Source: Escherichia coli
GTDB taxonomy: Bacteria > Pseudomonadota > Gammaproteobacteria > Enterobacterales > Enterobacteriaceae
Direction: 5' to 3' (one strand)
DNA length: 64,000 bases
NCBI RefSeq assembly: GCF_011045215.1
Contig: NZ_CP049201.1
Shown piece after piece: positions 45,183-64,000 of this stretch (positions within the stretch are counted from its first letter, which is position 1; each line of letters opens with the position of its first letter). Made by a program: the position numbers and the translations under genes. The notes under the pieces are model-generated. The model worked only from the letters and a program-made list of their open reading frames with translations. It was not told the origin of the DNA and searched no databases.

Positions 45183-45267
45183 GCCGAAGTGGCGAAATCG
45201 GTAGACGCAGTTGATTCAAAATCAACCGTAGAAATACGTGCCGGTTCGAGTCCGGCCTTCGGCACCA
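45183..45267 (+). tRNA. leuX: tRNA-Leu (anticodon CAA)
   Basis: 85-nt sequence GCCGAAGTGGCGAAATCGGTAGACGCAGTTGATTCAAAATCAACC...GGTTCGAGTCCGGCCTTCGGCACCA; anticodon loop TTCAAAA; long variable arm; CCA end. Confidence 0.93.
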
Positions 45268-45456
45268 TAAAAAGCTTTTTTCAAGTCTACCAACGTCTAC
45301 TTTAGTCCATAAAAACAGTAAGTTAAGCAGAGTTTTGGCCTTTCTTAGTCTGTTCACGTCTACTTACTTCTATCCACATATACCAACGAATGATGGTATA
45401 ACTGGTGGTATCTTCGGTTCGATTGATTTTGATACCAACAGCGGAGGTATCAACTG

Positions 45457-46707
45457 ATGGCACTTACTGATATCAAAGTTAGGACTACCAAGCCCTCCGA
45501 CAAACCTTTCAAACTCACAGATGGGCAGGGTATGCACCTGCTGATCAACCCCAATGGTTCAAAATACTGGCGACTCCAATACCGTTTCGATGGCAAACAG
45601 AAAGTTTTAGCATTGGGTGTTTATCCAATGGTCTCTCTTGGTGAAGCTCGCAGGAAACGAGATGAGGCTAAAAAGTTGGTATCTGATGGTATCGACCCTT
45701 CCGAGAAGAAAAAGGCAGACAAGATCGAGCAGAGCGAAGCTCTTACTTTTGAATCTGTTGCCAGGGACTGGCATAAGGCTTGTAAAAGGAAATGGTCAGA
45801 TTCCCATAGCGAGAGAGTTCTAAAAAGCATGGAAGATGGTCTCTTTACTGCTCTTGGTAAAAGAAAAATATCCGAGCTTAATACCAGAGATCTTCTTGCC
45901 CCTATCAAGGCTGTTGAAGCTTCTGGGCGACTGGAAGTTGCTTCCCGCCTACAGCAAAGAACAACGGCAGTGATGCGATATGCTGTCCAGAACGGGCTGA
46001 TAGATTACAACCCTGCCCAGGAGATGGCAGGAGCTATTGCAGTAGCTAAAAGAGTCCACAGGCCAGCTTTGCCATTCGAACGATTCTCAGAACTTTTAGA
46101 ACGAATTGATAGTTTCAAGGGTAGAAAACTCACGAAGTTAGCCGTAAAGCTGACATTGCTCATTTTCATTCGTTCCAGTGAACTTAGGTTTGCTCGTTGG
46201 TCAGAGATAGATTTCGACAATGCCATGTGGACTATCCCTGGGGAACGTGAGCCATTGCCAGGGGTCAAACATTCTCATCGAGGCTCAAAAATGAAGACAC
46301 CACACCTCGTGCCGTTAAGTCGCCAGGCTATAGAACTCCTCAAAGCTATCAAAGAAATCAGCGGTGAATGTGAACTTGTATTCATTGGTGATCATGATTT
46401 TAGAAAGCCTATGAGTGAAAACACGGTAAACAAGGCTTTAAGGTCTATGGGCTACGACACTACGGTTGAAGTATGTGGACATGGTTTTCGTGCGATGGCA
46501 TGTAGTGCGTTGATCGAATCGGGAAAATGGTCAAGGGATGCTGTTGAACGGCAGATGAGCCACCAAGAGCGAAACTCCGTTCGTGCTGCCTACATTCATA
46601 AAGCAGAACACCTTGATGAAAGAAGGCTTATGTTGCAGTGGTGGGCTGATTACCTTAATGCCTTGAAAGATAGGTTTATCAGTCCCTTTGATTTTACAAC
46701 AAAGTAG
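45457..46707 (+). CDS. intB: P4-family tyrosine integrase (IntB-like) with N-terminal DUF4102-type domain
   Basis: 416 aa, MALTDIKVRTTKPSDKPFKLTDGQGMHLLINPNGSKYWRLQYRFDGKQK N-terminus typical of tRNA-associated island integrases; C-terminal HGFRAMA...R...Y catalytic region; lies 190 bp from the leuX 3' end. Confidence 0.9.
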   Translation: MALTDIKVRTTKPSDKPFKLTDGQGMHLLINPNGSKYWRLQYRFDGKQKVLALGVYPMVSLGEARRKRDEAKKLVSDGIDPSEKKKADKIEQSEALTFESVARDWHKACKRKWSDSHSERVLKSMEDGLFTALGKRKISELNTRDLLAPIKAVEASGRLEVASRLQQRTTAVMRYAVQNGLIDYNPAQEMAGAIAVAKRVHRPALPFERFSELLERIDSFKGRKLTKLAVKLTLLIFIRSSELRFARWSEIDFDNAMWTIPGEREPLPGVKHSHRGSKMKTPHLVPLSRQAIELLKAIKEISGECELVFIGDHDFRKPMSENTVNKALRSMGYDTTVEVCGHGFRAMACSALIESGKWSRDAVERQMSHQERNSVRAAYIHKAEHLDERRLMLQWWADYLNALKDRFISPFDFTTK

Positions 46708-46794
46708 CTTGATCAACGATTAACTATCCACTGGCATAGCCGTGTGATATGATTACAATGGCTATATTTTTAATTTAAATTTAATAGGTAAAAA

Positions 46795-47934
46795 ATGTCC
46801 ACAATTAACCCCGCAATTTTTTCTTTTTTCTCTGGTTCAGGATTTCTTGATCTTGGATTTGAAAAAAATGGTTATGAAGTGGTTTTCGTGAATGAATACC
46901 ATGCTCCGTTTATGGATGCATATAAACATTCGAGGAAAAAATTAAATATAGCACCACCTCGTTTTGGGTATGCAGAGTGCAGTATTGAAGATGTAGAACA
47001 TGAAAAAATTAAGTCTTCTATGCTTCAACTTAAAAATGAGGGGCGATTGACTGGATTTATTGGTGGTCCACCATGCCCGGATTTCTCTGTAGCGGGTAAA
47101 AATAAAGGTCGAGATGGTGAAAACGGTCGGCTTTCACAAAGCTATATTGATATCATTCTTGAAATGAAACCAGATTTCTTTCTTTTTGAGAATGTTAAAG
47201 GTCTATACCGTACCAGTAAACATAGGGAATTTTTTGACCATTTAAAAACTCAATTAGAATCGGTTGGTTATTGTTTGCATGAAAAACTAATAAATTCTAT
47301 TGAATATGGTGCTCCTCAAGATAGGCAACGAATCATATTGATTGGTTTCCTTGATGAAAAATATGCAAGCCAATTCAATTGGGGGCAAAGAGTCTACCCT
47401 GAAAGAACTGCATTTGAATATAAATGGCCGACGACAAACCAATTTTCAGAAAACACTTCTGTTATAAAACCAAAGGGTATCCCAGAAGAGTTAACAGTAG
47501 AGCATTGGTTCAAGAAAAACCAGGTTGATAATCATCCAAATGCAAAGCATGTATTCGCGGCAAGAGCAGGGCTTGCGAGGTTTTTGACTGTCGAAGAAGG
47601 GGATGATAGTAAAAAATCCTATAAAAGGTTACATAGATGGAGATTTTCACCAACTGCTGCTTACGGTAATAATGAGGTACATTTACATCCTTATAAACCA
47701 AGAAGAATTACTGTTGCCGAAGCATTAGCAATTCAGTCTTTACCAAAAGAATTTGAATTACCTGCTTATATGACTCTGTCTAATATGTTTAAAACTGTCG
47801 GTAACGGTGTACCCTACTTAGCAGCGGCCGGTATTGCCAAATCTATTATAGAGCATTTAGGAATCGAATATGAGAGTAACTGCGGCGAACTTAGCACAGG
47901 CGATTGCCAATCTACCAAGAAACACGCAGTTTAA
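46795..47934 (+). CDS. DNA (cytosine-5)-methyltransferase
   Basis: 379 aa with C5-MTase motifs: I FSGSGFLDLGFE (FxGxG), IV GGPPCPDFS (Pro-Cys), VI FLFENV, VIII QDRQR, X GNGVP near C-terminus; AT-rich. Confidence 0.85.
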   Translation: MSTINPAIFSFFSGSGFLDLGFEKNGYEVVFVNEYHAPFMDAYKHSRKKLNIAPPRFGYAECSIEDVEHEKIKSSMLQLKNEGRLTGFIGGPPCPDFSVAGKNKGRDGENGRLSQSYIDIILEMKPDFFLFENVKGLYRTSKHREFFDHLKTQLESVGYCLHEKLINSIEYGAPQDRQRIILIGFLDEKYASQFNWGQRVYPERTAFEYKWPTTNQFSENTSVIKPKGIPEELTVEHWFKKNQVDNHPNAKHVFAARAGLARFLTVEEGDDSKKSYKRLHRWRFSPTAAYGNNEVHLHPYKPRRITVAEALAIQSLPKEFELPAYMTLSNMFKTVGNGVPYLAAAGIAKSIIEHLGIEYESNCGELSTGDCQSTKKHAV

Positions 47935-48946
47935 TTATGTAAATGTGCGAAATTCGGGAAGAATCATTGTAACGAATGTTCAACTTCCCGAAGGCCCAAT
48001 AGAATTCAAAAGATTCGATCCAAAAAAGGGTGAGACACTGCATAGTTCTAAATCGGAAAGCATCTCCACACAAATGTTGTGGAGATTGGCTAATGCTTTA
48101 CAGGAAGATGTCCCTGTCAATTTGGATCGTATTTTTGGTGCAAGCTATAATACACGTGCTGTTCTCGAAAGCCTTTTGGCCCATACTCCTGAGTTTTATT
48201 GGTGTAAGCTTGATCGCCTTGAGGTAATGAACACTCAGAAAAATATTAAAAAAGGTCACAAGCACCTTATTTATAGACCAAATGACCCACATGAAAATGG
48301 TGTAGCAATAGAACATACTACTAATGTTATAATTTCTGAAATGAATTTAGATGTTGTCCATCAATCAGTTGATATAGAGACAATCTTACCTACTAAAGGA
48401 ATGACGATTGAGGAAAAAAGACGTCATGCACAAATTCAAATCTCATTAGTAAAAATAGGTCATTACTTAGGTTATCGGACATGGGTTGCAGCAAATGATC
48501 GTGGCCTCCAATATAATGGAAAATCTATAGCCCAAATGGATGGGGTCATAGATAATTTAAGAAATGAACAAGTGCTTCAATCATATGATAAAGCTATCAA
48601 AGAAGCTCGGCTTATAGATTGTATTTGGTTTCGAAATGGAAAATTAATGCCTGCAGTTATGGAGATTGAGCATAGCACTGGTATTAAAAGTGGTTTGGTA
48701 AGGATGAAACAATTTTATGATTATGCACCACAGTTAAAAAATATACGTTGGACCGTTGTGGCACCTGACGAATATAGAAATAAAGTTATAGAGTTTTCTA
48801 ATATGCCACAATTTAAAGAATTAGATACTCGATTCTTCCCCTATTCTGCTGTAGAGGAACTCTATTCATTATGTGCAAGAAGGAATCCTCAAGGAATTAC
48901 AGACGATTTCCTTGATGCATTCATGGAAAAGTGTGTGACACATTAA
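47870..48946 (+). CDS. Putative nuclease-like partner of the methyltransferase (candidate restriction endonuclease); function inferred
   Basis: 358-aa ORF; ATG with AGGA SD overlaps MTase 3' end by 65 nt (translational coupling); C-terminal D...E-x-E-x(6)-K-like stretch (LIDCIWF...VMEIEHSTGIK) compatible with a PD-(D/E)xK core. Confidence 0.45.
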   Translation: MRVTAANLAQAIANLPRNTQFNYVNVRNSGRIIVTNVQLPEGPIEFKRFDPKKGETLHSSKSESISTQMLWRLANALQEDVPVNLDRIFGASYNTRAVLESLLAHTPEFYWCKLDRLEVMNTQKNIKKGHKHLIYRPNDPHENGVAIEHTTNVIISEMNLDVVHQSVDIETILPTKGMTIEEKRRHAQIQISLVKIGHYLGYRTWVAANDRGLQYNGKSIAQMDGVIDNLRNEQVLQSYDKAIKEARLIDCIWFRNGKLMPAVMEIEHSTGIKSGLVRMKQFYDYAPQLKNIRWTVVAPDEYRNKVIEFSNMPQFKELDTRFFPYSAVEELYSLCARRNPQGITDDFLDAFMEKCVTH

Positions 48947-49083
48947 TCCTTCATAATCAGTTACCGGAGCAAATTACTTTTCTCCGGTTGGTTAACTGAA
49001 TATTAGTATTAAAATCTGATGGTGTTTATTTTATAAATATCAAATGTAATGGTATTTTCAATAATTATATCTAAGAGCGGTTT

Positions 49084-49893
49084 ATGAGAGTAATTAGCCC
49101 CTTTGAGGAATTGAAGAACTGGTTTAATCTTGATAACTATGAACCGATAAAATCGTTTACAATCAAGGAACTACATAGAGAGATTGTCTTTAGAGAAGCG
49201 ATTTTCGACAGTGTAAATTTTGGATGGGAAGATGATAATCAAAATTTAAGGTCTATCCTTGAAGGTAATCCTATTTTAAGCAGACAAGATAATAATCATG
49301 GTCATTTTGGCAAGGGCCAAAGACATGTTGCGCAGGTTAGCTTTGGTGATATAAAAAAATTAGAGAATAAGTTGATAATGTTTAGCATGGATTTTTTTGA
49401 AGAAAATGGTGATTTCAAAAAAGAGTTGAAAAAGAAACCAATAACAAAAACTATGAGAGACTTTTTTCTCAACAAAAATAGCAGCAAGATGTATGTATCA
49501 TTTGATTTGGGGTTATCTAGTGATGAGGAAATTATATCAGCCCTGCAAACTATGCTTCCAACTCTAAGGAAAGAATACGAGATTGACCCAGTAAAAACAG
49601 AAAAGATAGGGCTCGCAAAAATAAGAAAACTTGTCGATTACAACATTATTCCTATGATGGACTTACTAATTTGGTCAAAATTCAAAAAAGCAAAAATCTC
49701 AAATATGGTCTTGTCTCGTGTGTTGTATCCTGATTTCACTCACGAGATTAGAGGCGAAGATCACATTAAAGATACAGACAGGCCCATTGCTGAGAAGGCT
49801 TTAAATGGAGAGATAACTCGTAGTTTGGAGTACTTTCTTAGTAAAAACAGTCATCTCATCAACATACCGATTTCAGAACTCGGATCTCTCTAG
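49084..49893 (+). CDS. Hypothetical protein (269 aa), no recognisable motif
   Basis: Long AT-rich ORF, same strand as R-M-like pair. Confidence 0.55.
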   Translation: MRVISPFEELKNWFNLDNYEPIKSFTIKELHREIVFREAIFDSVNFGWEDDNQNLRSILEGNPILSRQDNNHGHFGKGQRHVAQVSFGDIKKLENKLIMFSMDFFEENGDFKKELKKKPITKTMRDFFLNKNSSKMYVSFDLGLSSDEEIISALQTMLPTLRKEYEIDPVKTEKIGLAKIRKLVDYNIIPMMDLLIWSKFKKAKISNMVLSRVLYPDFTHEIRGEDHIKDTDRPIAEKALNGEITRSLEYFLSKNSHLINIPISELGSL

Positions 49894-50058
49894 CTATAAA
49901 TCATCATGCAATTGTCAAGGGGATGGTGAAAATATTTTTCTTCCCCTAAATTTCTCTCCATTCTTTCCTCATCTAAATTTTCAGTTATCAGCACTCCCTT
50001 CATAGATACAAATCTGTGTGGCTAATATCTCCTTAACGGAAGCGGAGGAGACAGCCAA

Positions 50059-50265
50059 ATGAATACAACCAATCAAAGCTTAATTCGTTTACCAGAAGTC
50101 TTGAAACGAACTGGTTTCGGCAAGGCCTGGATCTATCGTCTGATCAGTGAAGGTCGGTTTCCGGCACCCGTTAAGATCGGAATTCGTGCCGTTGCTTTTG
50201 TCGAGAGTGAAGTTGACGAGTGGATTCTATCAGTTATCGAAACAAACAGAATTAAAGTTGCTTAA
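50059..50265 (+). CDS. alpA: AlpA-family transcriptional regulator / excisionase-like DNA-binding protein
   Basis: 68 aa; LIRLPEVLKRTGFGKAWIYRLISEGRFPAPVKIG...VAFVESEVDEWI matches the AlpA/MerR-like HTH of prophage CP4-57-type regulators. Confidence 0.85.
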   Translation: MNTTNQSLIRLPEVLKRTGFGKAWIYRLISEGRFPAPVKIGIRAVAFVESEVDEWILSVIETNRIKVA

Positions 50266-50286
50266 TTAAACCTAGGAGAGATTTTT

Positions 50287-50601
50287 ATGAATATCGAAGA
50301 ATTTATGAATGAAGAAAACCATATGTGCAATTTAGGCGAGGATCTTTTTTGCAAGATCTTCGAACCCGGAGCGATTTATGATTTGCCGAATAGCGATTTT
50401 AATAAAGAAATCATTTACTGGCTCAGTCAGTATCTTGTCGGAAATTTGAGACAACCTTTAGACGCGATCTCTGAGCTTGATATTTTCGAGCAGTTTTATG
50501 TTTACGAGACATGGTTCTCGCTAATTAAATGCCCAGATGAAATTAGAAATTTATCGAAACGGATAATTCGATATCAGATTGGGTTAAAAACCATTCTTTG
50601 A
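50287..50601 (+). CDS. Hypothetical protein (104 aa)
   Basis: ORF immediately downstream of alpA, 21-nt gap. Confidence 0.5.
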   Translation: MNIEEFMNEENHMCNLGEDLFCKIFEPGAIYDLPNSDFNKEIIYWLSQYLVGNLRQPLDAISELDIFEQFYVYETWFSLIKCPDEIRNLSKRIIRYQIGLKTIL

Positions 50602-50732
50602 AAGAACCTATATTTAGTACTATTTTGTAAATTGCATTGTTGAAATGATAGTGCTATTTGCTTTTTGATTTACAAAACATCTTTAACTTCTTTTAAAATA
50701 ATGGGTTAACTATTTTAAGTGAAAAGAAAGGA

Positions 50733-50762
50733 TTATAATATCCCTCTAGAGGGATATTATAA
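50733..50762. promoter_or_regulatory. 30-bp perfect palindrome upstream of the recombinase operon (candidate operator or recombination site)
   Basis: TTATAATATCCCTCTAGAGGGATATTATAA is perfectly self-complementary; lies about 130 bp upstream of the first recombinase gene in an AT-rich leader. Confidence 0.5.
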
Positions 50763-50893
50763 ATTTTCGGCCGGTATGCGTCATTGTAAAAGGGAATAAT
50801 ATTAAATTCAGGAAAATATATTTGTAAATTGCTTATGTTATATGCTTTATTTATTTTCACTGACAATTAAATGTAAATAGAGGCGATATTACT

Positions 50894-52156
50894 TTGAAAT
50901 ATAAAATAAAAAGATTGAAGAATAAAGATGGTATCAGAAGTTGCATTATTATTAATGAGAGCAACGGATTACCCTTGGTTTATTCTAACTTATATATGAG
51001 TGTTATTTCACGAACAAATAGCTATTCATTTTCAACAATGGAAGCAATAGCAAATGCTTTGCTTTTATTTGAAAGATATAATGCTTACATGAATGTGGAT
51101 GTTTTTGATATGGTAAATCCTGACATCGAAAAACTTGTCTCGAACAAAGGATATTTATTCGGGTTAATGAATGCCCTTTCTTACAGAAACGACTTAGAGA
51201 ATGTTACAAGCATTCTTAAAGAACAACATGTCTCTAAAAGAACCCTTTATTTCAAGATAATGACAATTGAAAATTACGTCAAATGGTTTTTTGATAACAT
51301 TGCTATCAATAATATTGATTCTTCTCGTTATGAAGCAATCAGTCGAGCATTTGATTTTATAAAGCCAAGAATAGAGAACGGAAAGAATTACAATATTGAA
51401 AGCGAAAGCAAATCATTGACAAATGAGCAAGTTACAACTTTGACTGATATGGTAAGTGTTAAATCTAAGATTAATCCATTTTCGGAGCATGTAAGGTTTC
51501 GAAATAATCTAATAATTAAAATTTTATTAGAGACAGGTATTAGGGGAGGGGAACTACTTAATATTAAGTTGGTTGATTTTGACTATGTCCACAAAAGTCT
51601 ATGCATAGTAAGAAGGCCAGATGATCAAAACGAACCACGATTAAGGCAACCATTGGTTAAAACTTTAGAAAGAAAAATACCATTGAGTATAGAATTGACT
51701 GAGTTAATACAGAATTATATTAGTGATTTCAGAGGTAAGCAGTGTCATGCAGGGGAGCATGACTATCTGCTTGTTACTCATAGCAGTAAAGGTCAATTAG
51801 GTCATGCATTAACTATTTCAGGTTATCAGAAAATTTTCGAACAAATTAGGAAAAATAGTAATGTTTTGAGCGATATTGTGGGGCATTCGCTAAGACATAC
51901 TTGGAATGTGAAATTCTCAGAAATGATGCTCATGAATTCGAACTCTCAGGAATATATTACTTATGAGAAAGTAAGAAATTATCTTATGGGGTGGAAAAAG
52001 AATAGTACAACCTCAGATATCTATAACCAAGCATTTATAGCACAAGAAAGCCGAAAAATAATGGCTGTTATTAATCCACTCAAAAACATAGTAGAGGACA
52101 AATCCAATGTTTCAAACTCTAAGAAAGCTACAAGAAAGTCAATATTCGGTTTTTGA
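50894..52156 (+). CDS. Tyrosine recombinase 1 of a three-recombinase operon
   Basis: 420-aa ORF (TTG at 50894; first ATG at 50996); conserved ETGIRGGELLNIKLVDF (box I Arg), HSLRHTW (HxxR) and ...SDIYNQ (Tyr) catalytic elements. Confidence 0.75.
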   Translation: MKYKIKRLKNKDGIRSCIIINESNGLPLVYSNLYMSVISRTNSYSFSTMEAIANALLLFERYNAYMNVDVFDMVNPDIEKLVSNKGYLFGLMNALSYRNDLENVTSILKEQHVSKRTLYFKIMTIENYVKWFFDNIAINNIDSSRYEAISRAFDFIKPRIENGKNYNIESESKSLTNEQVTTLTDMVSVKSKINPFSEHVRFRNNLIIKILLETGIRGGELLNIKLVDFDYVHKSLCIVRRPDDQNEPRLRQPLVKTLERKIPLSIELTELIQNYISDFRGKQCHAGEHDYLLVTHSSKGQLGHALTISGYQKIFEQIRKNSNVLSDIVGHSLRHTWNVKFSEMMLMNSNSQEYITYEKVRNYLMGWKKNSTTSDIYNQAFIAQESRKIMAVINPLKNIVEDKSNVSNSKKATRKSIFGF

Positions 52157-53432: not shown

Positions 53433-53447
53433 AAGAAGGATAAAGTG

Positions 53448-55052: not shown

Positions 55053-55061
55053 GGAGATTAT

Positions 55062-56010: not shown

Positions 56011-56023
56011 CTAATTTTCTTTA

Positions 56024-56287: not shown

Positions 56288-56311
56288 TAGACTTAATCCT
56301 GATTAAGTATG

Positions 56312-56698
56312 TTACTGAAAAATGCCAGATTTTGTATTATTATTATCAGTAGAGAATGTCCATTTGCTGACAATTTCGCCTTTAAAATCTATTTCAAGAG
56401 TTTTGGACTGAGTCTGTGAACCACCAGTTAGTAGCCCAACTACAGGAATGAAAGTCGAGGCATTGAACTGATTGTTATACATAAAATATCTCCATTGCTC
56501 GTTGCCATCATCAAGAGTCGTTCTTGTATCTGGTTCACCTAACTTAGCGAGTAGCTCGTTCTTAGTAGTCTTGTTTTTAATGATCTTTGACTGAAGACTT
56601 TGTGCAGTTTCATTTTCAATTTGTTGGTTCCCGGATGTTGAGCAGCCAGAAATTAAAAATATTGCAATGAAAAAGGCGGTAACAATAGATTTATTCAT
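56312..56698 (-). CDS. Lipoprotein
   Basis: 128 aa; signal peptide with lipobox LISGC. Confidence 0.6.
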   Translation of the reverse strand: MNKSIVTAFFIAIFLISGCSTSGNQQIENETAQSLQSKIIKNKTTKNELLAKLGEPDTRTTLDDGNEQWRYFMYNNQFNASTFIPVVGLLTGGSQTQSKTLEIDFKGEIVSKWTFSTDNNNTKSGIFQ

Positions 56699-56727
56699 TC
56701 TATCTTCCTTATTATATTTGGTCAGGG

Positions 56728-57006
56728 TTAACTTTTATGTGTGAAAACGGCTCTGTGGGCAAATTTCTTGCGTAAATAAAATCTTAAAGAAATTGCTGAG
56801 GCAAAATAGATAACGACAGTTAATATAAAACTTTGACTGATAGCGAATATGAAGAAAGCAATTACTAACAGCACAATTCCTATGAGTAAAGCTAACCAGG
56901 CCGAAGGTTCACCATAATTTATTGTTGCGTGACAGCCGATACAGACACGAACTCCGAACGGACTCTCTTTGAAGCAGAACGGGCACTTAATGGTCTCTTT
57001 ACTCAT
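56728..57006 (-). CDS. Small membrane protein with N-terminal zinc-ribbon
   Basis: 92 aa; CPFC...CIGCH then one hydrophobic helix. Confidence 0.5.
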   Translation of the reverse strand: MSKETIKCPFCFKESPFGVRVCIGCHATINYGEPSAWLALLIGIVLLVIAFFIFAISQSFILTVVIYFASAISLRFYLRKKFAHRAVFTHKS

Positions 57007-57259
57007 ACAAACTCCGTTTATTCAACAGGTTCCTGATACTACAAATTGTTTAAAAATCATCAGGTTCTTTTCAGGGATTCTCGATGAATAATTATCTTTA
57101 GTAAAATCACTTGTACCGATCGATGTTTGAATCATGATAGGTAAAAACTATCATAACTAGATTATCGATCTGTATTAACGATCAATAATTTCTTGACATA
57201 ATATAAATTAGTTACTGTATAGTTAAGAGTGTTTGAGAATAATCAATACAAGTAATTGT

Positions 57260-58405
57260 CTATAAACGAATTTTTATCGCCTTGTTTAAAGGTTTCATTG
57301 CGTAGATATTTGAGAAGGTCGTGTGTGTTTTGTGAAGAATGGTCTTACCAAAGCTTCTCAGAAGCTCGATGTAATGCTTTATGGAAGCAAGCCACTCTAC
57401 GAATCTGAGATGCTTTTGCCGTTGTACTGCATTTTTTTGAAGAATCTTTCCTACGATTTCGTTTCGTTTGTCTTCTCTAAGCCGTAATTCCAGTTCTGCA
57501 ATTTTTTCAACGATACTTTCCTTTCTCTCAGTGGTTTTCAACACTGTTGCAGGAGCAGGAGCAGCAGGTTGGTCTTTTGTCGATATGTCGCTTCGTAGAG
57601 CTTCTAAGTGGTCGGGGTTGTAGTTAAGCCGATTACTGAGATTTGCCCAGGAGTAGCTCTTGCCCAATTGTGAAGCTTTGAAAGCTATGCCTGTGTATTC
57701 GAAAGAGAAGCCGTTCATTTTACCGGTAGAGGCAATATTGGCCTTCCAAGATACTTCAGCTTCTTCCAGCCTCTTGATAAAAGTTAGAAGGTCCGGCTTA
57801 TCAGATAAACTTTTATCAAGTATCTGCTGCAGAGCTTCTCTTGGTGAAAGCACCCCGGTTCGTTCCGATAGCATTTTCTCATTACGGGACACTCTCTTCC
57901 GCTTCGGTTGTGCTTGCGAGGGGGGAGATGCAGTTTTGGTCACTGTCAGGCCATGAGCGATTTCGAGTTTACTGATGATCTGTGTGCTGATGAGGTTTTC
58001 GTTCCTACCCAAGTAGAGCTTCCCACCATTGAGATCTATGCGACTTGCGATAATGTGTATGTGCTGGCCATCGTCGTCATGAAGCACATAGCAACGAAGG
58101 TGAGTATCCCTGAACCCCATCCTCTTCATGTAGTCATCTGCGATAATGGACCACTGTTCATTCGTTAGTGTTTCACCGTCGGGTAAGCGAAGTGAGTTGT
58201 GCCAAACGGGTTTTGCGACATCTAGGCGAAGATGCTTGGTGCTATCGAATTCAGCGATCATTTCAACGGCTGAATCACTTAACATGTTCCCGCCAATGAC
58301 GACTGGATCGCTTTTGTGGTGTGCTCCCGATTGTAATACATAACGAACAACACCAGCGAAGCTCTTACCCCTCTTGATCTTCCGCATACCCTTCACGAGG
58401 GACAC
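57260..58405 (-). CDS. Mobilisation relaxase (MobA/VirD2-like nuclease domain)
   Basis: 381 aa; three-histidine relaxase motif HDDDGQHIHIIASRIDL; immediately downstream of a MobC-like gene. Confidence 0.75.
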   Translation of the reverse strand: MSLVKGMRKIKRGKSFAGVVRYVLQSGAHHKSDPVVIGGNMLSDSAVEMIAEFDSTKHLRLDVAKPVWHNSLRLPDGETLTNEQWSIIADDYMKRMGFRDTHLRCYVLHDDDGQHIHIIASRIDLNGGKLYLGRNENLISTQIISKLEIAHGLTVTKTASPPSQAQPKRKRVSRNEKMLSERTGVLSPREALQQILDKSLSDKPDLLTFIKRLEEAEVSWKANIASTGKMNGFSFEYTGIAFKASQLGKSYSWANLSNRLNYNPDHLEALRSDISTKDQPAAPAPATVLKTTERKESIVEKIAELELRLREDKRNEIVGKILQKNAVQRQKHLRFVEWLASIKHYIELLRSFGKTILHKTHTTFSNIYAMKPLNKAIKIRL

Positions 58406-58739
58406 TCCAAAAATCTGTTCTTAACAAGTTGTGACGAAGCTCTTCAAGTTGTCGCTTCACAGCGAAAAGCTCTGTATGAGTAAGCTGGCTATCTTTACTC
58501 TTACTGTCGATATGGAGAGCAATACGATTCAACTTTTGTGATATGTCAGACAATTTTTTCCAGGCTTCAGTATTAATTGTCGGTACTACTGGTGGCAGGT
58601 TTTGCAGAAATGACATGCGGAGCCATTCACCTTTACTTTTATTACCTCGTTTTATATTTAAAATCTGTAATTCATTGTTGTTGAGTCGAACACTTATACA
58701 ATGTATTCTAATTCTGTCATCTAATCTTAATTTAGCCAT
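58365..58739 (-). CDS. MobC-family relaxosome accessory protein
   Basis: 124 aa; overlaps relaxase start by 41 nt; sequence pattern typical of MobC. Confidence 0.65.
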   Translation of the reverse strand: MAKLRLDDRIRIHCISVRLNNNELQILNIKRGNKSKGEWLRMSFLQNLPPVVPTINTEAWKKLSDISQKLNRIALHIDSKSKDSQLTHTELFAVKRQLEELRHNLLRTDFWSVPREGYAEDQEG

Positions 58740-58885
58740 ATAAGTTCCTTTTATATGATTTAATATGATTAATGATAGTTATTATTTCCCATTAGTCAAT
58801 AGCAGAACGGTTTTGATATATGGGTTTAATGTGCTAAAAATAAATCTCTCTGAAATAAAGTATTCAAAGATTCCCTAAATTAAAA
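58740..58885 (-). promoter_or_regulatory. Candidate oriT / mob promoter region (inferred from position only)
   Basis: AT-rich 146-bp gap upstream of mobC with short direct repeats (ATATGATT TAAT ATGATT AATGAT). Confidence 0.3.
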
Positions 58886-60049
58886 TTAAGGATGATCTAT
58901 TGAAACAAACTTTTGACTAAACTCCAGCCATCTTGCATTATCAACATCCTTCACAAAAGCAATCAGACCTGCGACATGATTGTAAAAGCCAATTGGAGAG
59001 TCAAATTTTTCATGTCTTGCAACTTCTGAGAGACCAAATTTTTTTATTGAGTAAAGGTGGCGTTCAATACGTTTATAAGTTTGTTTAGATAATCGAGGGA
59101 CATTGCCATCAACAAGTAATCCTAAAACTATTTTTTTTGAACCAGGTCCAGCTACTCTTATTTTGCTTACGTTTTCTTTGAAATGGTGCTTACGAATGAT
59201 GCTGATAATGTTATTTTGTATTTTTCCAACCGAAACACCGTCGGGTAGAGTACCACCGCAGGATAATGTTATATCATCAGCATATCGAGTATAAGTGAAG
59301 CCATATTTATTAGCATATTCAGATAGAGAAATATCTAACTTTACAGTGGCTAAATTACTAAGCATTGGGCTACTCGGTGCCCCTTGAGGTAGCACTCCTA
59401 ACGGCCATGGTTCTGATATGTCCCAAAAAAGGCTCTTCTCTTTATTTTGTCCGTAAAGCTTATATTCCTTAGTTGAGTGCTTAGGAACAGAAATTAGAGA
59501 TTGTAAATGTTGTGGTAAACGTATAGTTGTGCATAGCCTTGATAGTTCAAATGCTATTAATGGCCGATATCCAGCATTTTTAAAAACCATATAAACATCA
59601 GATTCATTTATTGAATAAAAGAAATCGGAAATGTCGAATTGGAAGAGCCATTTAGCACCACAATGCTGTTCTGCACATTTTCTGATGCCACCATTAGGAT
59701 GGAAAGCAAAAGAAGTATTATGGGGAACTAACTTTTTTAATATTTCACTATTGATGAAATGCTGTACTTTAAATATCTCGCCAGTTACAGCATGAATATG
59801 GCGTCTTCCACCTGAACGTTTTTTTATAGCAAACATGCGATAATTTGCTGATTCACGGCGGCGTGATACAGTGGATCGTAGCAAGCGATAATCAACACCA
59901 GTAATTTTTGAAAGATGGCGTAATGTAAAAATTACAGGGAGATTATTTTTCTTCAGATTACTTGCATAATTTCTTAAGTTTAGAGCCTGTGTCTTCCCTA
60001 AGGATGACTCTGCATTTTGATAAAGTTGGTGTGCTGACCAGATTTCCAT
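58886..60049 (-). CDS. Retron-type reverse transcriptase
   Basis: 387 aa; RT motifs FQFDISDFF (A), LPQGAPSSP (B'), YTRYADDITLS (C); by-eye alignment to remembered retron Ec86 RT (QGAPSSP.LANL...YTRYADDLTLS, IDLEDFFPS); C-terminal VLGLLV in place of the retron VTG. Confidence 0.85.
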   Translation of the reverse strand: MEIWSAHQLYQNAESSLGKTQALNLRNYASNLKKNNLPVIFTLRHLSKITGVDYRLLRSTVSRRRESANYRMFAIKKRSGGRRHIHAVTGEIFKVQHFINSEILKKLVPHNTSFAFHPNGGIRKCAEQHCGAKWLFQFDISDFFYSINESDVYMVFKNAGYRPLIAFELSRLCTTIRLPQHLQSLISVPKHSTKEYKLYGQNKEKSLFWDISEPWPLGVLPQGAPSSPMLSNLATVKLDISLSEYANKYGFTYTRYADDITLSCGGTLPDGVSVGKIQNNIISIIRKHHFKENVSKIRVAGPGSKKIVLGLLVDGNVPRLSKQTYKRIERHLYSIKKFGLSEVARHEKFDSPIGFYNHVAGLIAFVKDVDNARWLEFSQKFVSIDHP

Positions 60050-60237
60050 TCACCTATCCTTTGAGCCCAGGGGGCCATCAGTGTCATACATTTTCCGAGT
60101 CCTCGATGGCCGTTAATGTATGACATTGAAGGGCGGCGTAGCCGCCTTTGCGTCAGATCTTTCCAGAGATGTTTCTCCAACATCCCCATCCGTTGTAACA
60201 AAAGCCACAACAGATTCTGTCAAACAAGCGGTGAACT
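60050..60237 (-). ncRNA. Candidate structured ncRNA (possible retron msr-msd-like template) in the PRTase-RT spacer
   Basis: 188-nt non-coding spacer directly upstream of the RT; 15-bp stem (60078-60092 pairs with 60115-60129, one G-U) with 22-nt loop; adjacent GGCGGC-GTA-GCCGCC hairpin (60132-60146). Confidence 0.4.
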
Positions 60238-61458
60238 TCACTCATCATTGTTTAACGGCTGAACGGAGTGCTGATCAGCACACCAAGACTCTGGAATGTA
60301 AAGACCAAAATCCCATACACTATCGTTTTTAACATGCCTAGAATTTACAAGTATGTCAAGTCCGAATTTAGATAATCGTTTTTGAGTTGTCAATAGTCCT
60401 AATGTCTCTGCATATATGAGTAGTTTTTCTACATACGAACAATCAACATTCAAACGTAAGGCAATGCTTTTGTTATCTCTGACACCTCTTTTTATAAGTT
60501 TTAGTAAATTTATAATTTCGGGAGATAAAGATGAATGGGGGGAAGTGTTATGCTTTGTTCCATTTTCTAACAAGGCAAGCAGCCATCCTGGAATTGCTCT
60601 ATCAGGCATTAGTCCTTGCCATTTTTTATTAGAAAACCATAGTATTCCAGGAAGGTTATTAGGGACGCTATGATAAAAAATTATATTAGATAAAACATTA
60701 CCATAGCCAAGACGAGCCCATGGAGGAATTTTGGTTTGATTTTTACAAAGATTGATTATTTCATTATACTGCTCACCCCACCGAGTTTCTAACCAATTTT
60801 CATTATATACGATGTTACTTATGAAATTGATTTTTTCAGATTTTCTATATTTTCTTACTCCATGGTCTGAGCCGCGAATAGTATTGATTATTCTATTTTC
60901 AGAACCTAGTGTTCTGGCGAAAGAAATTAAAGTTAATCTTACTAGTCCTAAACTCCACCAACTTAAAAAGGTAGGGTTATCGAGCATGGCATTAATAAAT
61001 CCGGATACTCTATCACCACTACCAATCGAATCATCAATAAGTAAAAAATCGTTGACTTTAGATTTTTTCAGATCATTGAGTGATGGATGATCTAAAAACA
61101 TAGTTTTATTAGACCGCACAAGGTTTGAAATAATTGAATATACTAAGTCTTCGCTACCTTGCGAATGACCTGGTCTATTAACAACATCACCATTAAGGTC
61201 CCATAATACTTGTTTGTCTGGATCTAATTTGCGAACTGAATAAAGGGCATAATTTTTATTTTTTGGTAAATCAGAAATGCTCTTTTGAAGCCATATGGTA
61301 AACTCATCTCTACTTACAAAAGTTAACTTGCTCAAGATGTTTTTTGCAATCGCTTTTTGGCTGCTATTAAATTGCATAAGCCATTGAGCTATTTCCTGAG
61401 AGGATTCAATTTTTTCTACTGAAAGTATTTTAAATTTAGGTTTGTCTCTTGTTTTCAT
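60238..61458 (-). CDS. Phosphoribosyltransferase-like protein (putative RT-associated effector)
   Basis: 406 aa; PRPP-binding-like motif KVNDFLLIDDSIGSGDR (hydrophobic strand, DD, small-Gly); encoded immediately upstream of and co-directional with the RT. Confidence 0.55.
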   Translation of the reverse strand: MKTRDKPKFKILSVEKIESSQEIAQWLMQFNSSQKAIAKNILSKLTFVSRDEFTIWLQKSISDLPKNKNYALYSVRKLDPDKQVLWDLNGDVVNRPGHSQGSEDLVYSIISNLVRSNKTMFLDHPSLNDLKKSKVNDFLLIDDSIGSGDRVSGFINAMLDNPTFLSWWSLGLVRLTLISFARTLGSENRIINTIRGSDHGVRKYRKSEKINFISNIVYNENWLETRWGEQYNEIINLCKNQTKIPPWARLGYGNVLSNIIFYHSVPNNLPGILWFSNKKWQGLMPDRAIPGWLLALLENGTKHNTSPHSSLSPEIINLLKLIKRGVRDNKSIALRLNVDCSYVEKLLIYAETLGLLTTQKRLSKFGLDILVNSRHVKNDSVWDFGLYIPESWCADQHSVQPLNNDE

Positions 61459-61693
61459 TTTTTTTAACCACTGTCAGGGCAATTGTTATTTCATAACATA
61501 AAAAGTAATGATGGTAAAGGTTTTGTTGTATCATTAACCTTCTTTATAACTGAGTAGACTAAGTTTAGTACTCTTATACGAAGCTAAATGAGCTAAATAT
61601 TAAATACTAAAATGTAATGGCGGATATTTTTCAACCGAAGGGCGAAAAACAAGGGAACGCAAAGAAGCGGAGCTTCGATGAGTTAGCCCTTGC

Positions 61694-62296
61694 TTATTCA
61701 TATGATTTGTATTTCTTTTCATCTACTAAATTTATTATGGACGATGAGGTTTTATATATCAACTTTACATTGTGTAAAGATATATTGTGTTTGCTAATAA
61801 AATATAAAAGATCCAATAGCATCTGTTCTTGCCGTTCTTGTGGAAACTCTAATTTTACGATTGGAGTAAATTCAACAATAAAACCACTATTCAACAGTAG
61901 TTTTATGTAGCTAAATGAGTTTGGCGTAACTGTTTTGATTTTTATTATTTTATTAGTAATTAGATGCTTATGGTTTATAATAATGTGAGGGTTGAGCAGT
62001 GCCATATCATATGACATGAATGTTAAACCATGACTATCTATTATGTTCAAGTCGATACCAAGTTGTATAAACATATCGATTATTGCTTTGCTATGTATCC
62101 AGTTATAAAATAAAGGTGTCCTTCCATAGTTATCTAAATGATTTAGGTCGGCTCCTGCAGCTAAAAGAGATGTTGTAAGTAAATAGTCATTAGAATAAAA
62201 TAATGGTGTACGACCACAATTATCCTTTAAGTTTATTAAACCATTGTCTATGAATATATTAGATAAATTATTGTGCATTTTACCTCCTTTTATCAT
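61694..62296 (-). CDS. Ankyrin-repeat protein
   Basis: 200-aa ORF; two clear ankyrin repeats (GRTPLFYS...LLAAGADLNHLDNYGRTPLFY) plus degenerate third (DSHGLTFMS). Confidence 0.6.
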   Translation of the reverse strand: MIKGGKMHNNLSNIFIDNGLINLKDNCGRTPLFYSNDYLLTTSLLAAGADLNHLDNYGRTPLFYNWIHSKAIIDMFIQLGIDLNIIDSHGLTFMSYDMALLNPHIIINHKHLITNKIIKIKTVTPNSFSYIKLLLNSGFIVEFTPIVKLEFPQERQEQMLLDLLYFISKHNISLHNVKLIYKTSSSIINLVDEKKYKSYE

Positions 62297-62339
62297 TATG
62301 TATATTAAAAAAAGGAGGTTGTCAATATTTAGAGGTTAG

Positions 62340-62588
62340 TTAACCACCAAATGTTTTTTTCTTAGGTTGTGGGGGCTCTGCATTAAGTATGATAGTTTTA
62401 ATATTTGCATTTATTTGATTGATATTATCAGTCAATATATTAATAACTGATAATGCTTCTACAGGTGTGCTAAATGATGATTCTAAAAACACGCCTGAGC
62501 CTTTCAAAAATATATGGTAAGTGAGTATGCCATTTTCTTCATTTTCATATATATCATAAAGTTCATTTACTGTTTCGTACAATTTCAT
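62340..62588 (-). CDS. Hypothetical small protein (82 aa)
   Basis: ORF between the ATPase-partner pair and the ankyrin gene. Confidence 0.45.
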   Translation of the reverse strand: MKLYETVNELYDIYENEENGILTYHIFLKGSGVFLESSFSTPVEALSVINILTDNINQINANIKTIILNAEPPQPKKKTFGG

Positions 62589-62643
62589 TATTATACTCCT
62601 TGATAATGATGGTTTATTTCAATGGGCTCGCGATATCACTACC

Positions 62644-63519
62644 TTATAAATGATCTCCAATGTGAGCAATAGCGATTTGTGCCGGTCTATCAGGAATTCT
62701 ATTAAAGAAGCCAAAGTATATTCTATTGTAGTAATAAGTTCCTTTTCGATTAGTATTGTCCATGTATTCAAGTTTATAATGGAATTCACAATTCACGTCT
62801 TTATAGATACAATCACCCACTTTAAAATCACGTTTTAATTCCCCTATGGCTCGTTTATTTTTGCCTCCACCTTCTGGTGTTACAAGATAAGGTAACGATG
62901 AATTCATAATTCTAATGTTATGTTGTGAGTCATTAGGTATAATTGTATAGTTATTAACAAAATAAAGAAATTCAGTGATGCTTTTCAAAAAATTTTCATA
63001 TCCACCTTCAATTTTCCTAATAAAATTAAAGGTTTGTGGTGGGTTATCCAAAAAAATGACATTCTTGAAAATGTTTTTAATATTGTCAGCATATTCATCA
63101 CAATCCGATGGGAATTCATCAAGGATTTTCTTAGAAAGATCAATTATTTCACTTTCACTAGAAACTGTATTATCCTTTTTTAAAGGTATGTCTGGAGATT
63201 GATAGGCACAGAGTTTTCTTTCGGCAAGTATCGATGGGGATGTATTGATGATATTTAGAAGTTCATTGCAGCCTATTTCATCCAATAAACTAATTTGGCC
63301 TATTTTATAATACTCATTAACAAGGCCACCGTAATCAGGGTTTGTTGAAAATAATTTAGTGACAAATTTTCCATCAAATTCATTGGAGCGAAGAAACTTT
63401 ATAAAATCTGAATCCACTCTCTCTACAAGTGCTTTAAGATCTTTAATCTGGTTAAAAATCTTAATTTGTTCTTCTTCAAGAGAAAAACTATCTATGAACA
63501 AGCAAACACCTGCTTTCAT
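62644..63519 (-). CDS. Hypothetical protein, partner of upstream ATPase (possible degenerate HNH-like nuclease)
   Basis: 291 aa; starts 9 nt after the ATPase gene stop; C-terminal C-x6-C-x2-H-x9-N-x10-N segment (DCIYKDVNCEFHYKLEYMDNTNRKGTYYYNRIY) loosely HNH-like. Confidence 0.5.
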   Translation of the reverse strand: MKAGVCLFIDSFSLEEEQIKIFNQIKDLKALVERVDSDFIKFLRSNEFDGKFVTKLFSTNPDYGGLVNEYYKIGQISLLDEIGCNELLNIINTSPSILAERKLCAYQSPDIPLKKDNTVSSESEIIDLSKKILDEFPSDCDEYADNIKNIFKNVIFLDNPPQTFNFIRKIEGGYENFLKSITEFLYFVNNYTIIPNDSQHNIRIMNSSLPYLVTPEGGGKNKRAIGELKRDFKVGDCIYKDVNCEFHYKLEYMDNTNRKGTYYYNRIYFGFFNRIPDRPAQIAIAHIGDHL

Positions 63520-63528
63520 GAAATCCCC

Positions 63529-64000
63529 TTAATTTTCAATATCAGGAGTATTAAATGATCCTGTCATAATGGTATACATATCAATTGATTGCTGGTCAAA
63601 GAATCCTTTCGGCCAACTAGAAAGTTTTCCATCTTTGCCAATAGATATCTTTTCTGCAGTAGATTCATTATTCTCATGTGAAATATAAAATAACGAAATT
63701 AGCTCAGGTGAAAAGTCAGGAGATGTTCTTGCTACGACACGGATTCCGTTGAGAAGGTGATCGCTATGAGTTTCTATGAATACCTGTACTCCCGCTTGAG
63801 CAGTGTAAGCTATTAATCTACCCATATAGCTTTGTCCTCTAGGGTGCAAATGGGCTTCCGGGTTTTCTAAAACTACTAATTCGCCCGGTTTTGCTAAAAG
63901 TAATGCTGAAACAATACTCAAAGCATAGCTATAACCAAAACCAATGTTTTTGGGTTTAGTTTGTTTTCCTGACTCAGCCTGTATTGTGTTATAAGCAATG
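63529..64000 (-). CDS. ABC/AAA15-type ATPase, C-terminal part (DUF3696-like); 5' end beyond window
   Basis: Frame open to window edge (ORF-track 'M' is TTG); ...GFGYSYALSIVSALLLAKPGELVVLENPEAHLHP (signature/Walker B/D-loop) and FIETHSDHLL (H-loop). Confidence 0.7.
   Translation of the reverse strand, partial: IAYNTIQAESGKQTKPKNIGFGYSYALSIVSALLLAKPGELVVLENPEAHLHPRGQSYMGRLIAYTAQAGVQVFIETHSDHLLNGIRVVARTSPDFSPELISLFYISHENNESTAEKISIGKDGKLSSWPKGFFDQQSIDMYTIMTGSFNTPDIEN

Follow-up and report, generated by a model that had tools for sequence, protein, structure and literature searches.

Anti-phage defence systems of Escherichia coli ride on integrative mobilizable elements (IMEs) and on GInts at tRNA hotspots, and GInts have also been reported as defence carriers in this species (PMC10121019). 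For the element described here the closest described family is that of the EARL (Enterobacteriaceae-associated ROD21-like) islands, represented by ROD21 of Salmonella Enteritidis and ICEKp258.2 of Klebsiella pneumoniae ST258 (PMC6035254, PMC8844411, PMC10763509); these are mobilizable islands of 19-35 kb at the 3' end of tRNA genes, and a DUF6387 + AlpA gene pair stands at the end of islands such as ICEKp258.2 (PMC10763509, PMC6035254). GInts (the Tn6571 family; Bardaji et al. 2017, PMC5385486) are built around the ginABCD operon, all four genes of which are needed for excision and integration, and ssb is the reported target of several GInt families (PMC5385486). Here we analyze a stretch of 64,000 nt from an E. 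coli genome (RefSeq assembly GCF_011045215.1, contig NZ_CP049201.1), the whole of which is called the window throughout, and propose that its right-hand part, from the tRNA gene leuX onward, is very likely the left portion of an IME of about 21.6 kb that is inserted in the 3' end of leuX and carries defence cargo in two slots. We read the region in this way because it combines att repeats, an intact P4-type integrase, an AlpA-like factor with a DUF6387 protein, and a relaxase, and has no mating-pore genes. The island also contains a complete three-recombinase operon related to those of GInts.

Results

Insertion site and ends of the island

The left end of the island is marked by leuX, the sole tRNA gene found by ARAGORN in the 64 kb of the window, and by two sequence features associated with it:

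45183-45267, + strand: leuX, tRNA-Leu with anticodon CAA (ARAGORN; Rfam tRNA, 59.4 bits)
45244-45267, + strand: attL core repeat, the final 24 nt of leuX, GTTCGAGTCCGGCCTTCGGCACCA
45380-45440, no strand: candidate cluster of arm-type integrase sites, GATGGTAT and near copies in both orientations, between attL and the integrase gene

The DNA to the left of leuX is E. coli core (pepA, lptF, lptG, yjgR, ahr), and between 36000 and 45182 it is 99.4% identical to the best complete genomes. GC is 0.513 over positions 1-45182 versus 0.351 over 45268-64000; when calculated in 1-kb windows the means are again 0.513 (standard deviation 0.052) and 0.351 (0.044), with a Mann-Whitney p of 8e-9. Third-codon-position GC follows the same trend, with values of 0.24-0.48 in the island genes versus 0.60-0.68 in the three adjoining core genes. 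Because of this shift, and because of the sporadic distribution documented below, the DNA of 45268-64000 is foreign to the E. coli core. The original prediction for this stretch, made from the letters alone, had placed the end of the core at ahr and leuX, with AT-rich DNA from there on, and had located the right boundary, a repeat of the leuX 3' end, beyond the window; the composition bears out the first point, and the second is borne out as follows.

There is no second copy of the 24-nt leuX end in the window, even when up to 3 mismatches are allowed. The right end was traced by looking for the exact protein NsnC of the window (a component of the Menshen system described below) in public assemblies, which yielded six contigs. 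One of these, contig L009 (run SRR11014969), is 100% identical to 57549-64000 and extends 9.5 kb further; on it attR is found as GTTCGAGTCCGGCCTTCGCACCA at window-equivalent positions 66800-66822, 218 nt past the nsnA start. This repeat agrees with attL in 23 of 24 nt, one G being absent (attR can be written GTTCGAGTCCGGCCTTCG-CACCA), and 18 nt of the core are perfect. Given its position, the island measures about 21.6 kb, of which the window holds the left 18.7 kb. In strain 120899 of enterotoxigenic E. coli (ETEC), the closest relative among the complete genomes, the corresponding position has the same 18-nt core with a small tandem duplication behind it. This degenerate copy of attR is not matched by the 24-mer with up to 3 mismatches, and is recovered as the 18-nt core by an exact-word search.

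In the extended sequence of 73.5 kb the 8-nt word GATGGTAT has 9 exact copies, 4 of which lie within 200 nt of an att core (at 45392, 66728 and 66740, and inverted at 66645); a fifth att-proximal copy, with one mismatch, is at 45404. We infer that the clusters at both ends are arm-type sites for the integrase, which has an arm-binding domain.

Beyond attR, contig L009 (its positions 1-6720, window-equivalent 66.8-73.5 kb) continues with about 3 kb more of AT-rich DNA containing two unassigned open reading frames (ORFs) of 183 and 482 aa, then with two ScoMcrA-like SBD/HNH genes, and then with nanS and nanM; no further leuX repeat is found there. The AT-rich ORFs and the ScoMcrA-like genes past attR suggest that the interval between leuX and nanS also holds older remnants or additional inserts. 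In the closest core relative the leuX site is nearly empty.

Integration, excision and mobilization genes

The genes on which the mobility of the island would depend are the following:

45457-46707, + strand: P4-type tyrosine integrase, 416 aa (Pfam, NCBIfam)
49084-49893, + strand: DUF6387 protein, 269 aa (Pfam DUF6387, 2.4e-74)
50059-50265, + strand: AlpA-like helix-turn-helix protein, 68 aa, candidate recombination directionality factor
57260-58405, - strand: relaxase, 381 aa (Pfam Relaxase, MobA/VirD2 nuclease, 2.3e-23)
58365-58739, - strand: candidate accessory protein, 124 aa, its gene overlapping the relaxase gene

The integrase matches the Pfam families Arm-DNA-bind_3 (2e-27), Phage_int_M (3.6e-28) and Phage_integrase (2e-20), as well as NCBIfam PRK09692 (3.5e-71), and shares 94-99% of its residues with the integrases that other leuX islands encode. 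The AlpA-like protein matches the excisionase domain TIGR01764 (1.7e-4) and a PHROG family named 'excisionase and transcriptional regulator' (3.4e-10), and its Pantoea homologue has the Pfam domain Phage_AlpA. The DUF6387 gene appears to be a conserved partner of this putative excision factor. At the level of genes, then, the island has both a full-length integrase and a predicted excision factor of its own.

The relaxase carries the histidine motif HDDDGQHIH at residue 109, and the NCBIfam models that fit it best are Bacteroides MobB (4e-19) and TraI/MobA(P) (3e-18). No gene for a mating pore (type IV secretion system) or for a coupling protein is found among the ORFs of the whole 21.6 kb (window plus contig extension), and this combination of a relaxase with the absence of mating-pore genes is the one that characterizes an IME.

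A recombination junction can be recognized inside the relaxase gene, at about 57420-57550, where similarity shifts from ETEC 120899 to strain 300444. Five public contigs that reach this far all end exactly at 57549, inside the gene, a coincidence which suggests that those genomes may carry another, related copy of the relaxase.

Defence cargo in two slots

Almost all of the identifiable cargo is predicted to be anti-phage defence: restriction-modification, a retron and a Menshen system. Slot 1, the interval from the integrase to the DUF6387 gene, holds the first of these:

46795-48946, + strand: type II restriction-modification pair (PADLOC MTase_II, REase_II)
46795-47934, + strand: C5-cytosine methyltransferase (PADLOC MTase_II, 1e-163; TIGR00675 dcm)
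47870-48946, + strand: restriction endonuclease (PADLOC REase_II, 2e-124)

The closest solved relative of the methyltransferase is M.HaeIII, and the endonuclease has no match in the PDB. With the two genes adjoining, the pair is complete and would cut unmethylated incoming DNA. The segment 46657-49074, which corresponds to this slot, is absent from strains 300444 and MS 115-1.

Slot 2 extends from the accessory gene beside the relaxase to attR, and its first part is occupied by a retron:

58886-61458, - strand: type III-A retron (PADLOC RT_III-A, PRTase_III-A)
60238-61458, - strand: effector, a phosphoribosyltransferase (PRTase) with a winged helix-turn-helix (PADLOC PRTase_III-A, 2e-93; Pfam PRTase-CE and wHTH-PRTase_assc on the identical protein)
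60026-60286, - strand: candidate msr-msd non-coding RNA (ncRNA), recognized by its fold z-score and inverted arms
58886-60049, - strand: retron reverse transcriptase (RT; PADLOC RT_III-A, 5.6e-160)

The RT has the motif YADD at residue 256, and the PRTase the motif DDSIGSG at residue 142. The 188-nt interval from effector to RT, folded along with the neighbouring ends of both genes, reaches a minimum free energy of -80 kcal/mol (z = -6.3 versus shuffles), and the candidate ncRNA is framed by inverted arms of 27 nt at 60260-60286 and 60026-60052, which are 81% complementary; the second arm covers the RT start codon. In the copy of strain 300444 the ncRNA differs at 1 aligned base. It has no Rfam match in an E-value scan of 45000-64000 or in a gathering scan of the whole window, in which the tRNA is the only hit within the island. 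An RT, an adjoining PRTase-like effector and a structured ncRNA with terminal inverted repeats are the components of a type III-A retron, and all are found here. The retron is present in 2 of 5,426 complete E. coli genomes.

In its organization the locus resembles Retron-Eco11 (type III-A3, from E. coli EC2608; PMC12746101): a PRTase effector with a fused C-terminal winged helix, the ncRNA and the RT follow one another in the same order, the a1/a2 inverted repeats extend over the last part of the effector gene and over the start codon of the RT, and a PRPP-binding motif is present (DDSIGSG here, TDTIGSG in Eco11; PRPP, phosphoribosyl pyrophosphate). The two alleles differ in the RT motif (YADD here versus YSDD), in the effector start (MKTRDKP here versus MSSHEIT, the Eco11 start being taken from the cloning primer given in the paper), and in the C-terminal tail (LYIPESW here versus the consensus YYPxxLR). 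In Retron-Eco11 the helicases UvsW of T4 and D10 of T5 activate the PRTase effector, with the consequence that PRPP is depleted and infection aborts (PMC12746101). By analogy, phage helicases acting on the complex of msDNA, RT and effector would be expected to switch on the PRTase of the present retron and to deplete PRPP; since the allele differs from Eco11, we infer this activity from the likeness of the two systems.

The second part of slot 2 consists of a Menshen system that runs past the window end, and of two small genes downstream of it:

63529-64000, - strand: NsnB ATPase, C-terminal part, cut by the window end (PADLOC, 1.8e-56)
62644-63519, - strand: NsnC, complete (PADLOC, 6e-94)
62340-62588, - strand: 82-aa protein, ORF downstream of nsnC
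61694-62296, - strand: 200-aa protein with faint ankyrin repeats (faint Ank Pfam match, weak matches to ankyrin-effector NCBIfam models)

Contig L009 continues with the full NsnB (1.2e-110) and with NsnA (2.4e-115), and nsnA, nsnB and nsnC are thus found together, NsnC and the C-terminus of NsnB in the window and the rest on the contig. As in the described Menshen system (NsnABC; PMC12065111), a DUF262/ParB-like NsnA is followed by NsnB, an ABC ATPase whose tail is DUF3696, and then by NsnC; an N-terminal extension of about 225 aa in NsnA corresponds to the type II architecture (PMC12065111). Such a type II system would operate with a DUF262 sensor, an ABC ATPase and NsnC as polymorphic effector. 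In comparison with the allele of IAI1 and ETEC 120899, NsnC is 47% identical, while the adjoining nsnB DNA is 95.6% identical, and this divergence beside a nearly identical nsnB fits the effector polymorphism described for Menshen (PMC12065111). The point at which similarity switches lies about 37 nt inside nsnC. Unlike the described systems, the one in the window has two extra small genes 3' of nsnC (82 aa and 200 aa), which are on the same strand and separated by small gaps; at the nucleotide level neither is found in any of the 5,426 complete genomes, and both may have an accessory role in this variant of Menshen.

A three-recombinase operon inside the backbone

Between the excision genes and the relaxase lies an operon that resembles ginABCD, preceded by a small conserved gene:

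50287-50601, + strand: conserved 104-aa protein, always 5' of the recombinase operon
50894-55460, + strand: ginABCD-like operon, three tandem tyrosine recombinases followed by a small protein
50894-52156, + strand: recombinase 1, 420 aa (Pfam Phage_integrase)
52107-53432, + strand: recombinase 2, 441 aa (NCBIfam integrase_1, 5e-73)
53445-55052, + strand: recombinase 3, 535 aa (invariant catalytic residues)
55062-55460, + strand: fourth operon protein, 132 aa, homologous to the fourth gin-cassette protein

The third recombinase has no Pfam match, and its family profile finds no meaningful match among PDB sequences; it is assigned to the tyrosine recombinases because the full signature (R218, K250, H421, R424, W444, Y456) is invariant in a 31-member alignment of its family. 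The catalytic residues are intact in all three recombinases. Homology was assessed against the four-gene cassettes located directly behind ssb on the plasmids pETN48 and pPAD8 and in the Idiomarina chromosome, and each of the four genes has its homologue there, at 24-39% identity. Against the pETN48 cassette, identity is 30% for recombinase 3 (E = 2e-66) and 39% for the 132-aa protein (E = 2e-23). The operon therefore has the composition of a GInt operon, three tyrosine recombinases plus a small fourth gene, all with gin homology. Downstream of the ssb cassettes, the cargo is Avs4 on pETN48, and AAA_13, a helicase and ToxN in the Idiomarina chromosome.

The 104-aa protein is 75-100% identical in the related E. 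coli islands and 53% in MSHS 472, is not detected in strain 135, and matches no family in NCBIfam or PHROG. The synteny around the operon is kept in Pantoea at 27-64% protein identity, so that the association of operon and backbone must be old. The operon is a fixed part of the backbone and, as such, an unusual feature of the island.

Upstream of the first recombinase gene, the two copies of a 12-nt direct repeat, TTTGTAAATTGC (at 50624 and 50821), bracket a perfect 26-nt palindrome at 50735-50760, ATAATATCCCTCTAGAGGGATATTAT. A motif TGTAAAG, resembling the cassette-flank repeat considered in the Discussion, is found just after ssb in plasmid GInts.

A widespread 70-nt hairpin element

The two parts of slot 2 are separated by a short element:

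61627-61695, no strand: 70-nt non-coding element with two hairpins

In 8 of 8 islands examined the element has sharp edges and unrelated flanks. A blastn search matches it in 678 of the 5,426 complete E. coli genomes, at full length in 677 of the 678, always on the chromosome and never annotated, with a median of 1 copy per genome and at most 3; no match is found on PLSDB plasmids or in Rfam, nor in the available part of the Pantoea locus. The hairpins fold with z = -3.7 here and z = -6.4 in the IAI1 copy. Its inner part consists of 11-nt inverted arms around an invariant GCGGAGC, and where the arms change they do so on both sides, with symmetry and pairs kept. In E41-1 the element is 118 nt from the accessory gene; in the window the retron lies in between. 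Two other islands carry a 77% copy of it beside a pair of ParB-like genes and a serine recombinase, which together form a module. The element may be an origin of transfer (oriT), a bidirectional terminator (A-run, stem, T-run) or a core site for a recombinase.

The ParB-serine-recombinase module recurs in ssrA-type and other related islands (L006, L007, L023, L024), in some of which it stands in place of the recombinase-relaxase backbone. A relationship between arm sequence and gin lineage was discarded, as no correlation is visible by eye: strain 135 and MSHS 472 share arms and differ in gin type.

Distribution and mosaic structure

None of the 5,426 complete E. coli genomes holds 80% or more of 45100-64000, the best coverage being that of six ETEC strains (74% at 97% identity). 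The backbone segment 49000-58800 is detected by megablast in 212 of these genomes, and at a coverage of at least 80% in 9; the segment from 61.7 to 63.3 kb is found in none. A search for adjacency of the flanking genes gives a count of 786 genomes, which is no measure of the prevalence of the family, as it probably includes matches at 60-80% identity to AlpA-type genes from other families of islands.

Similarity changes along the island. Positions 45101-57418 are 97.8% identical to ETEC 120899, 57068-61695 are 92% identical to strain 300444, and 61695-63335 match neither, a pattern that points to a mosaic of at least three donors. The backbone order shared with related islands is DUF6387, AlpA, 104-aa gene, three recombinases, small genes, relaxase, accessory gene. 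It is found at leuX in IAI1, 300444 and MS 115-1. H10407, strain 135 and E41-1 have it at ssrA, where the P4-type integrase is a different one (35% identity) and is encoded in the opposite orientation; MSHS 472 has it at a third site, and it occurs also in Pantoea stewartii. Most of it is matched in O55:H7 strains as well. The insertion site in this family (leuX, ssrA or the third site) follows the integrase that is carried. The contents of slot 2 differ between related islands. One set combines Abi and Menshen, and another a retron with cyclase/TIR/caspase, sce7725/sce7726 and RES genes; KwaB-like genes, PLD with a large AAA protein, Hxs, and ThiF/MPN are found in other islands of the family.

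These results sharpen the original prediction, which had described an AT-rich leuX island with modular cargo and had named integration, methylation, recombination, mobilisation, RT and ATPase modules. All are present: the integrase and the relaxase are recognized by their domains, the methyltransferase belongs to a complete type II restriction-modification pair, the recombination genes form a GInt-type four-gene operon, the RT is that of a type III-A retron with a PRTase effector and a candidate ncRNA, and the ATPase is NsnB of a Menshen system. The cargo had also been called strain-specific, and the genome counts given above agree with this. Of the two circumstances that would have spoken against the prediction, a lack of attR and conservation of the region in most E. 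coli, neither applies. The contrast drawn with K-12 is likewise correct, the K-12 leuX island containing an intB pseudogene, insertion sequence (IS) elements and fecIRABCDE.

Other features of the window

The remaining backbone genes lie between the recombinase operon and the relaxase, and give weak lipoprotein family matches only (55546-57006):

55546-55983, + strand: 145-aa backbone protein, ORF conserved across islands
56024-56287, - strand: predicted lipoprotein with a signal-peptide-like N-terminus
56312-56698, - strand: predicted lipoprotein with a signal-peptide-like N-terminus
56728-57006, - strand: 92-aa membrane protein with a Cys-rich N-terminus, conserved across islands

The core part of the window contains two AT-rich stretches of its own (GC 0.31-0.37), namely 29178-30926, a 582-aa hypothetical gene between tabA and argF, and 33308-34504, which is yjgN; both occur at the same positions in other E. 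coli genomes. Close to the island yjgR is directly followed by ahr (43886-43968), without the idn (L-idonate) genes that immediately precede ahr in K-12 and that IAI1 and the ETEC relatives likewise lack. Rfam further identifies in the core four naRNA4 (REP-type) repeats (4750-4828, 10986-11063, 37966-38140), a magnesium riboswitch (21239-21354) and a match to the antisense RNA Ysr276 (38974-39168).

Discussion

Nature of the element

An insertion in the 3' end of a tRNA gene with direct repeats, a deviant composition and a sporadic distribution are what is expected of a tRNA-integrated island, and they are all observed here. If the island is an IME, as we propose, its integrase and AlpA-like factor would recombine attL and attR and release a circle; the relaxase would nick an oriT on the circle; the DNA would leave the cell by way of a pore supplied by a conjugative plasmid or an integrative and conjugative element (ICE) resident in that cell, and the integrase would reinsert it at leuX in the recipient. 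Related islands, in turn, swap the contents of their slots by recombining within the conserved backbone.

Several observations weigh against this proposal. The repeat attR has a 1-nt deletion, and it is placed past the window end by a contig that stems from a different sample. The accessory protein has a weak NikA-like match only (E = 0.025), and scans for inverted repeats near the relaxase genes gave nothing convincing as an oriT, their yield being limited to a 27-nt imperfect repeat downstream of the relaxase and to AT-rich palindromes; the 70-nt element is only a candidate for this function. The mosaic structure shows that homologous recombination takes place between islands and could spread cargo without any mobility encoded by the element, and a second complete recombinase system, the gin-like operon, is not accounted for by a simple IME model. 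Part of this evidence would suit a decayed, immobile island that integrated once at leuX, became fixed in the lineage, and has since changed only by homologous recombination with related islands: the deletion in attR and the tandem duplication in the ETEC relative, the patchwork of segments with its junction in the relaxase gene (~57420-57550), the relatives riddled with IS elements that split the relaxase, and the further remnants past attR (the 183-aa and 482-aa ORFs and the ScoMcrA-like genes) can all be read as signs of decay. However, every backbone gene is a full-length ORF here, including the integrase, the three recombinases and the relaxase, 18 nt of the att core are perfect, and the same backbone is found at three chromosomal sites and in several genera, which requires repeated transfer; we therefore hold decay to be decidedly unlikely. 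A phage satellite (P4-like, or a phage-inducible chromosomal island, PICI) is suggested by the P4-type integrase, by the use of leuX by P4-like satellites in E. coli (PMC10121019) and by the AlpA-like gene, which is also typical of satellites; but there are no primase-helicase, capsid-size, psu/delta/sid-like or packaging genes, PHROG matches are confined to integrase and excisionase families, and a relaxase is present. As for a self-transmissible ICE, the 21.6 kb hold no type IV secretion or coupling protein genes. With their defining genes lacking, both of these readings were rejected as extremely improbable. A Gamma-mobile-trio (GMT) island, which has the proteins GmtY, GmtZ and GmtX, two recombinases and a StbA-like protein among them (bioRxiv 10.1101/2023.03.28.534373), was rejected as well, the only match being that of the second recombinase to GmtY (E = 6e-4, 19 bits versus a cut-off of 340).

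A different account is offered by two nested elements, in which a GInt-type element, using site-specific recombination of its own, would have entered a small P4-integrase island that consisted of the integrase, DUF6387, AlpA and the 104-aa gene. The inserted element would start about 100-300 nt upstream of the first recombinase gene, and would comprise either the bare four-gene cassette (~50.6-55.5 kb) or the cassette and all that lies to its right (relaxase, retron, Menshen). The four genes are indeed organized like the ginABCD operons that directly follow ssb and have defence cargo downstream. Moreover, the segment that is not homologous between island variants is exactly the cassette (50592-55453), whose proteins are 26-37% identical versus 75-93% for the flanks, and the IAI1-type third recombinase is closer to GinC of the ssb GInts (38-39%) than to the window type (33%), which argues that the slot was filled at least twice from outside; in the ssrA island NT1F10, which has no cassette, the resemblance to H10407 breaks off some 160 nt ahead of the first recombinase gene. 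There is also a repeat at the two flanks, an AT-rich match of 10-11 nt: TATTTGTAAAT stands at 50819 and at 55504, 45 nt past the fourth gene, and as ATTTGTAAAT it has no other copy in the window. On the other hand, this sole flanking repeat is of doubtful significance, since 4 of 100 shuffles give two copies at 10 nt, and its right copy falls in a promoter-like stretch that is not conserved in other variants. The operon lies at a distance of 5.3 kb from the end of the island and is bordered by conserved backbone at left and right, unlike GInts, where it occupies the 5' end of the element beside its own attL with imperfect direct repeats. No empty site is found in 5,426 genomes, in none of which the 104-aa and 145-aa genes adjoin without the operon (no place covers 80% of the joined query), and the Pantoea synteny makes the association an old one. 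The variability of the cassette and its refilling from outside thus favour an autonomous cassette, whereas the lack of cassette-free flanks and the Pantoea synteny favour an obligatory part of the backbone; on balance the nested arrangement seems unlikely to us, and a single leuX-inserted IME the better description.

Significance

The island adds an example to the known pattern in which tRNA hotspots of E. coli are filled by mobilizable elements with anti-phage cargo, and it provides a natural context and new alleles for two systems, the rare type III-A retron and a type II Menshen with a swapped NsnC effector. Its two-slot backbone could be used to mine defence genes, the neighbours to be considered including the 82-aa/ankyrin-like pair and unnamed genes that occupy these slots in related islands. 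It also raises the question of why a GInt-type three-recombinase operon is retained in an element that already has an integrase; if that operon, or the 70-nt element, drives the exchange of cargo, the movement of defence cassettes between islands would be explained.

A more far-reaching interpretation, which we regard as conceivable but doubtful, is that these islands form an undescribed family of enterobacterial mobilizable islands with two systems, in which an EARL-type P4 integrase/AlpA/DUF6387 set determines the tRNA or tmRNA site, and an obligatory GInt-type ginABCD operon would serve either to take up or swap defence cassettes or to join the island with conjugative plasmids at sites of the ssb type; the gin operon would then possibly act on the conserved 70-nt site at 61627-61695. 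If this were true, a relaxase in GInt-like cargo would give GInts the route of intercellular transfer that has so far been missing.

Comparison with known systems

With EARL the island shares its low GC, its size, its position at a tRNA 3' end with direct repeats, the P4-type integrase, the AlpA-family recombination directionality factor accompanied by a gene of about 840 bp (DUF6387; compared with Table 1 of PMC10763509), a relaxase without mating pore, which makes both mobilizable, and a variable cargo, which in EARL includes restriction-modification and TIR genes. EARL islands reside in Asn-tRNA genes (rarely Phe or Ser), whereas the island of the window is in leuX and relatives are in ssrA. 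They also feature TraD and type IV pilin genes, often together with a homologue of H-NS, and their relaxase is of the MobA/MobL (MOBQ) type and measures about 500 aa; in family scans no ORF of the island matches a TraD, pilin or H-NS family, and its relaxase is of 381 aa and agrees best with MobP-type models. The integrase is beside DUF6387 here and at the opposite end in EARL, and a ginABCD-like operon is not mentioned in the EARL descriptions. Because the features of Asn-tRNA, TraD, MobA/MobL and pilin are not shared, we consider the island a relative that has the excision module in common with EARL, and not an EARL island.

The likeness to GInts is in the operon: three tyrosine recombinases and a small fourth protein encoded by overlapping or abutting genes, a divergent third recombinase, which annotations frequently list as a hypothetical protein, variable DNA rich in defence genes that starts directly past the fourth gene, and an identity to the ssb cassettes that falls in the range reported between GInt families. 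In GInts this operon is one end of the element and its sole integration system; here the island around it is already equipped with a P4-type integrase and with att sites at a tRNA, and the downstream DNA contains a relaxase, which is not described for GInts. The K-12 leuX island (KpLE2 / PR-Y) uses the same site between leuX and nanS and has a P4-type integrase gene beside the tRNA, but intB is pseudogenised there, and several IS, fecIRABCDE and sugar-utilisation genes extend over about 40 kb; by annotation, K-12 has none of the modules of the present island beyond the site and the integrase type. Among known systems, then, this is an ordinary kind of element, a rare mobilizable defence island integrated at a tRNA gene and having an excision module of the EARL type, in which the fixed GInt-type operon and the widespread 70-nt element are unusual points and not yet a new kind of system.

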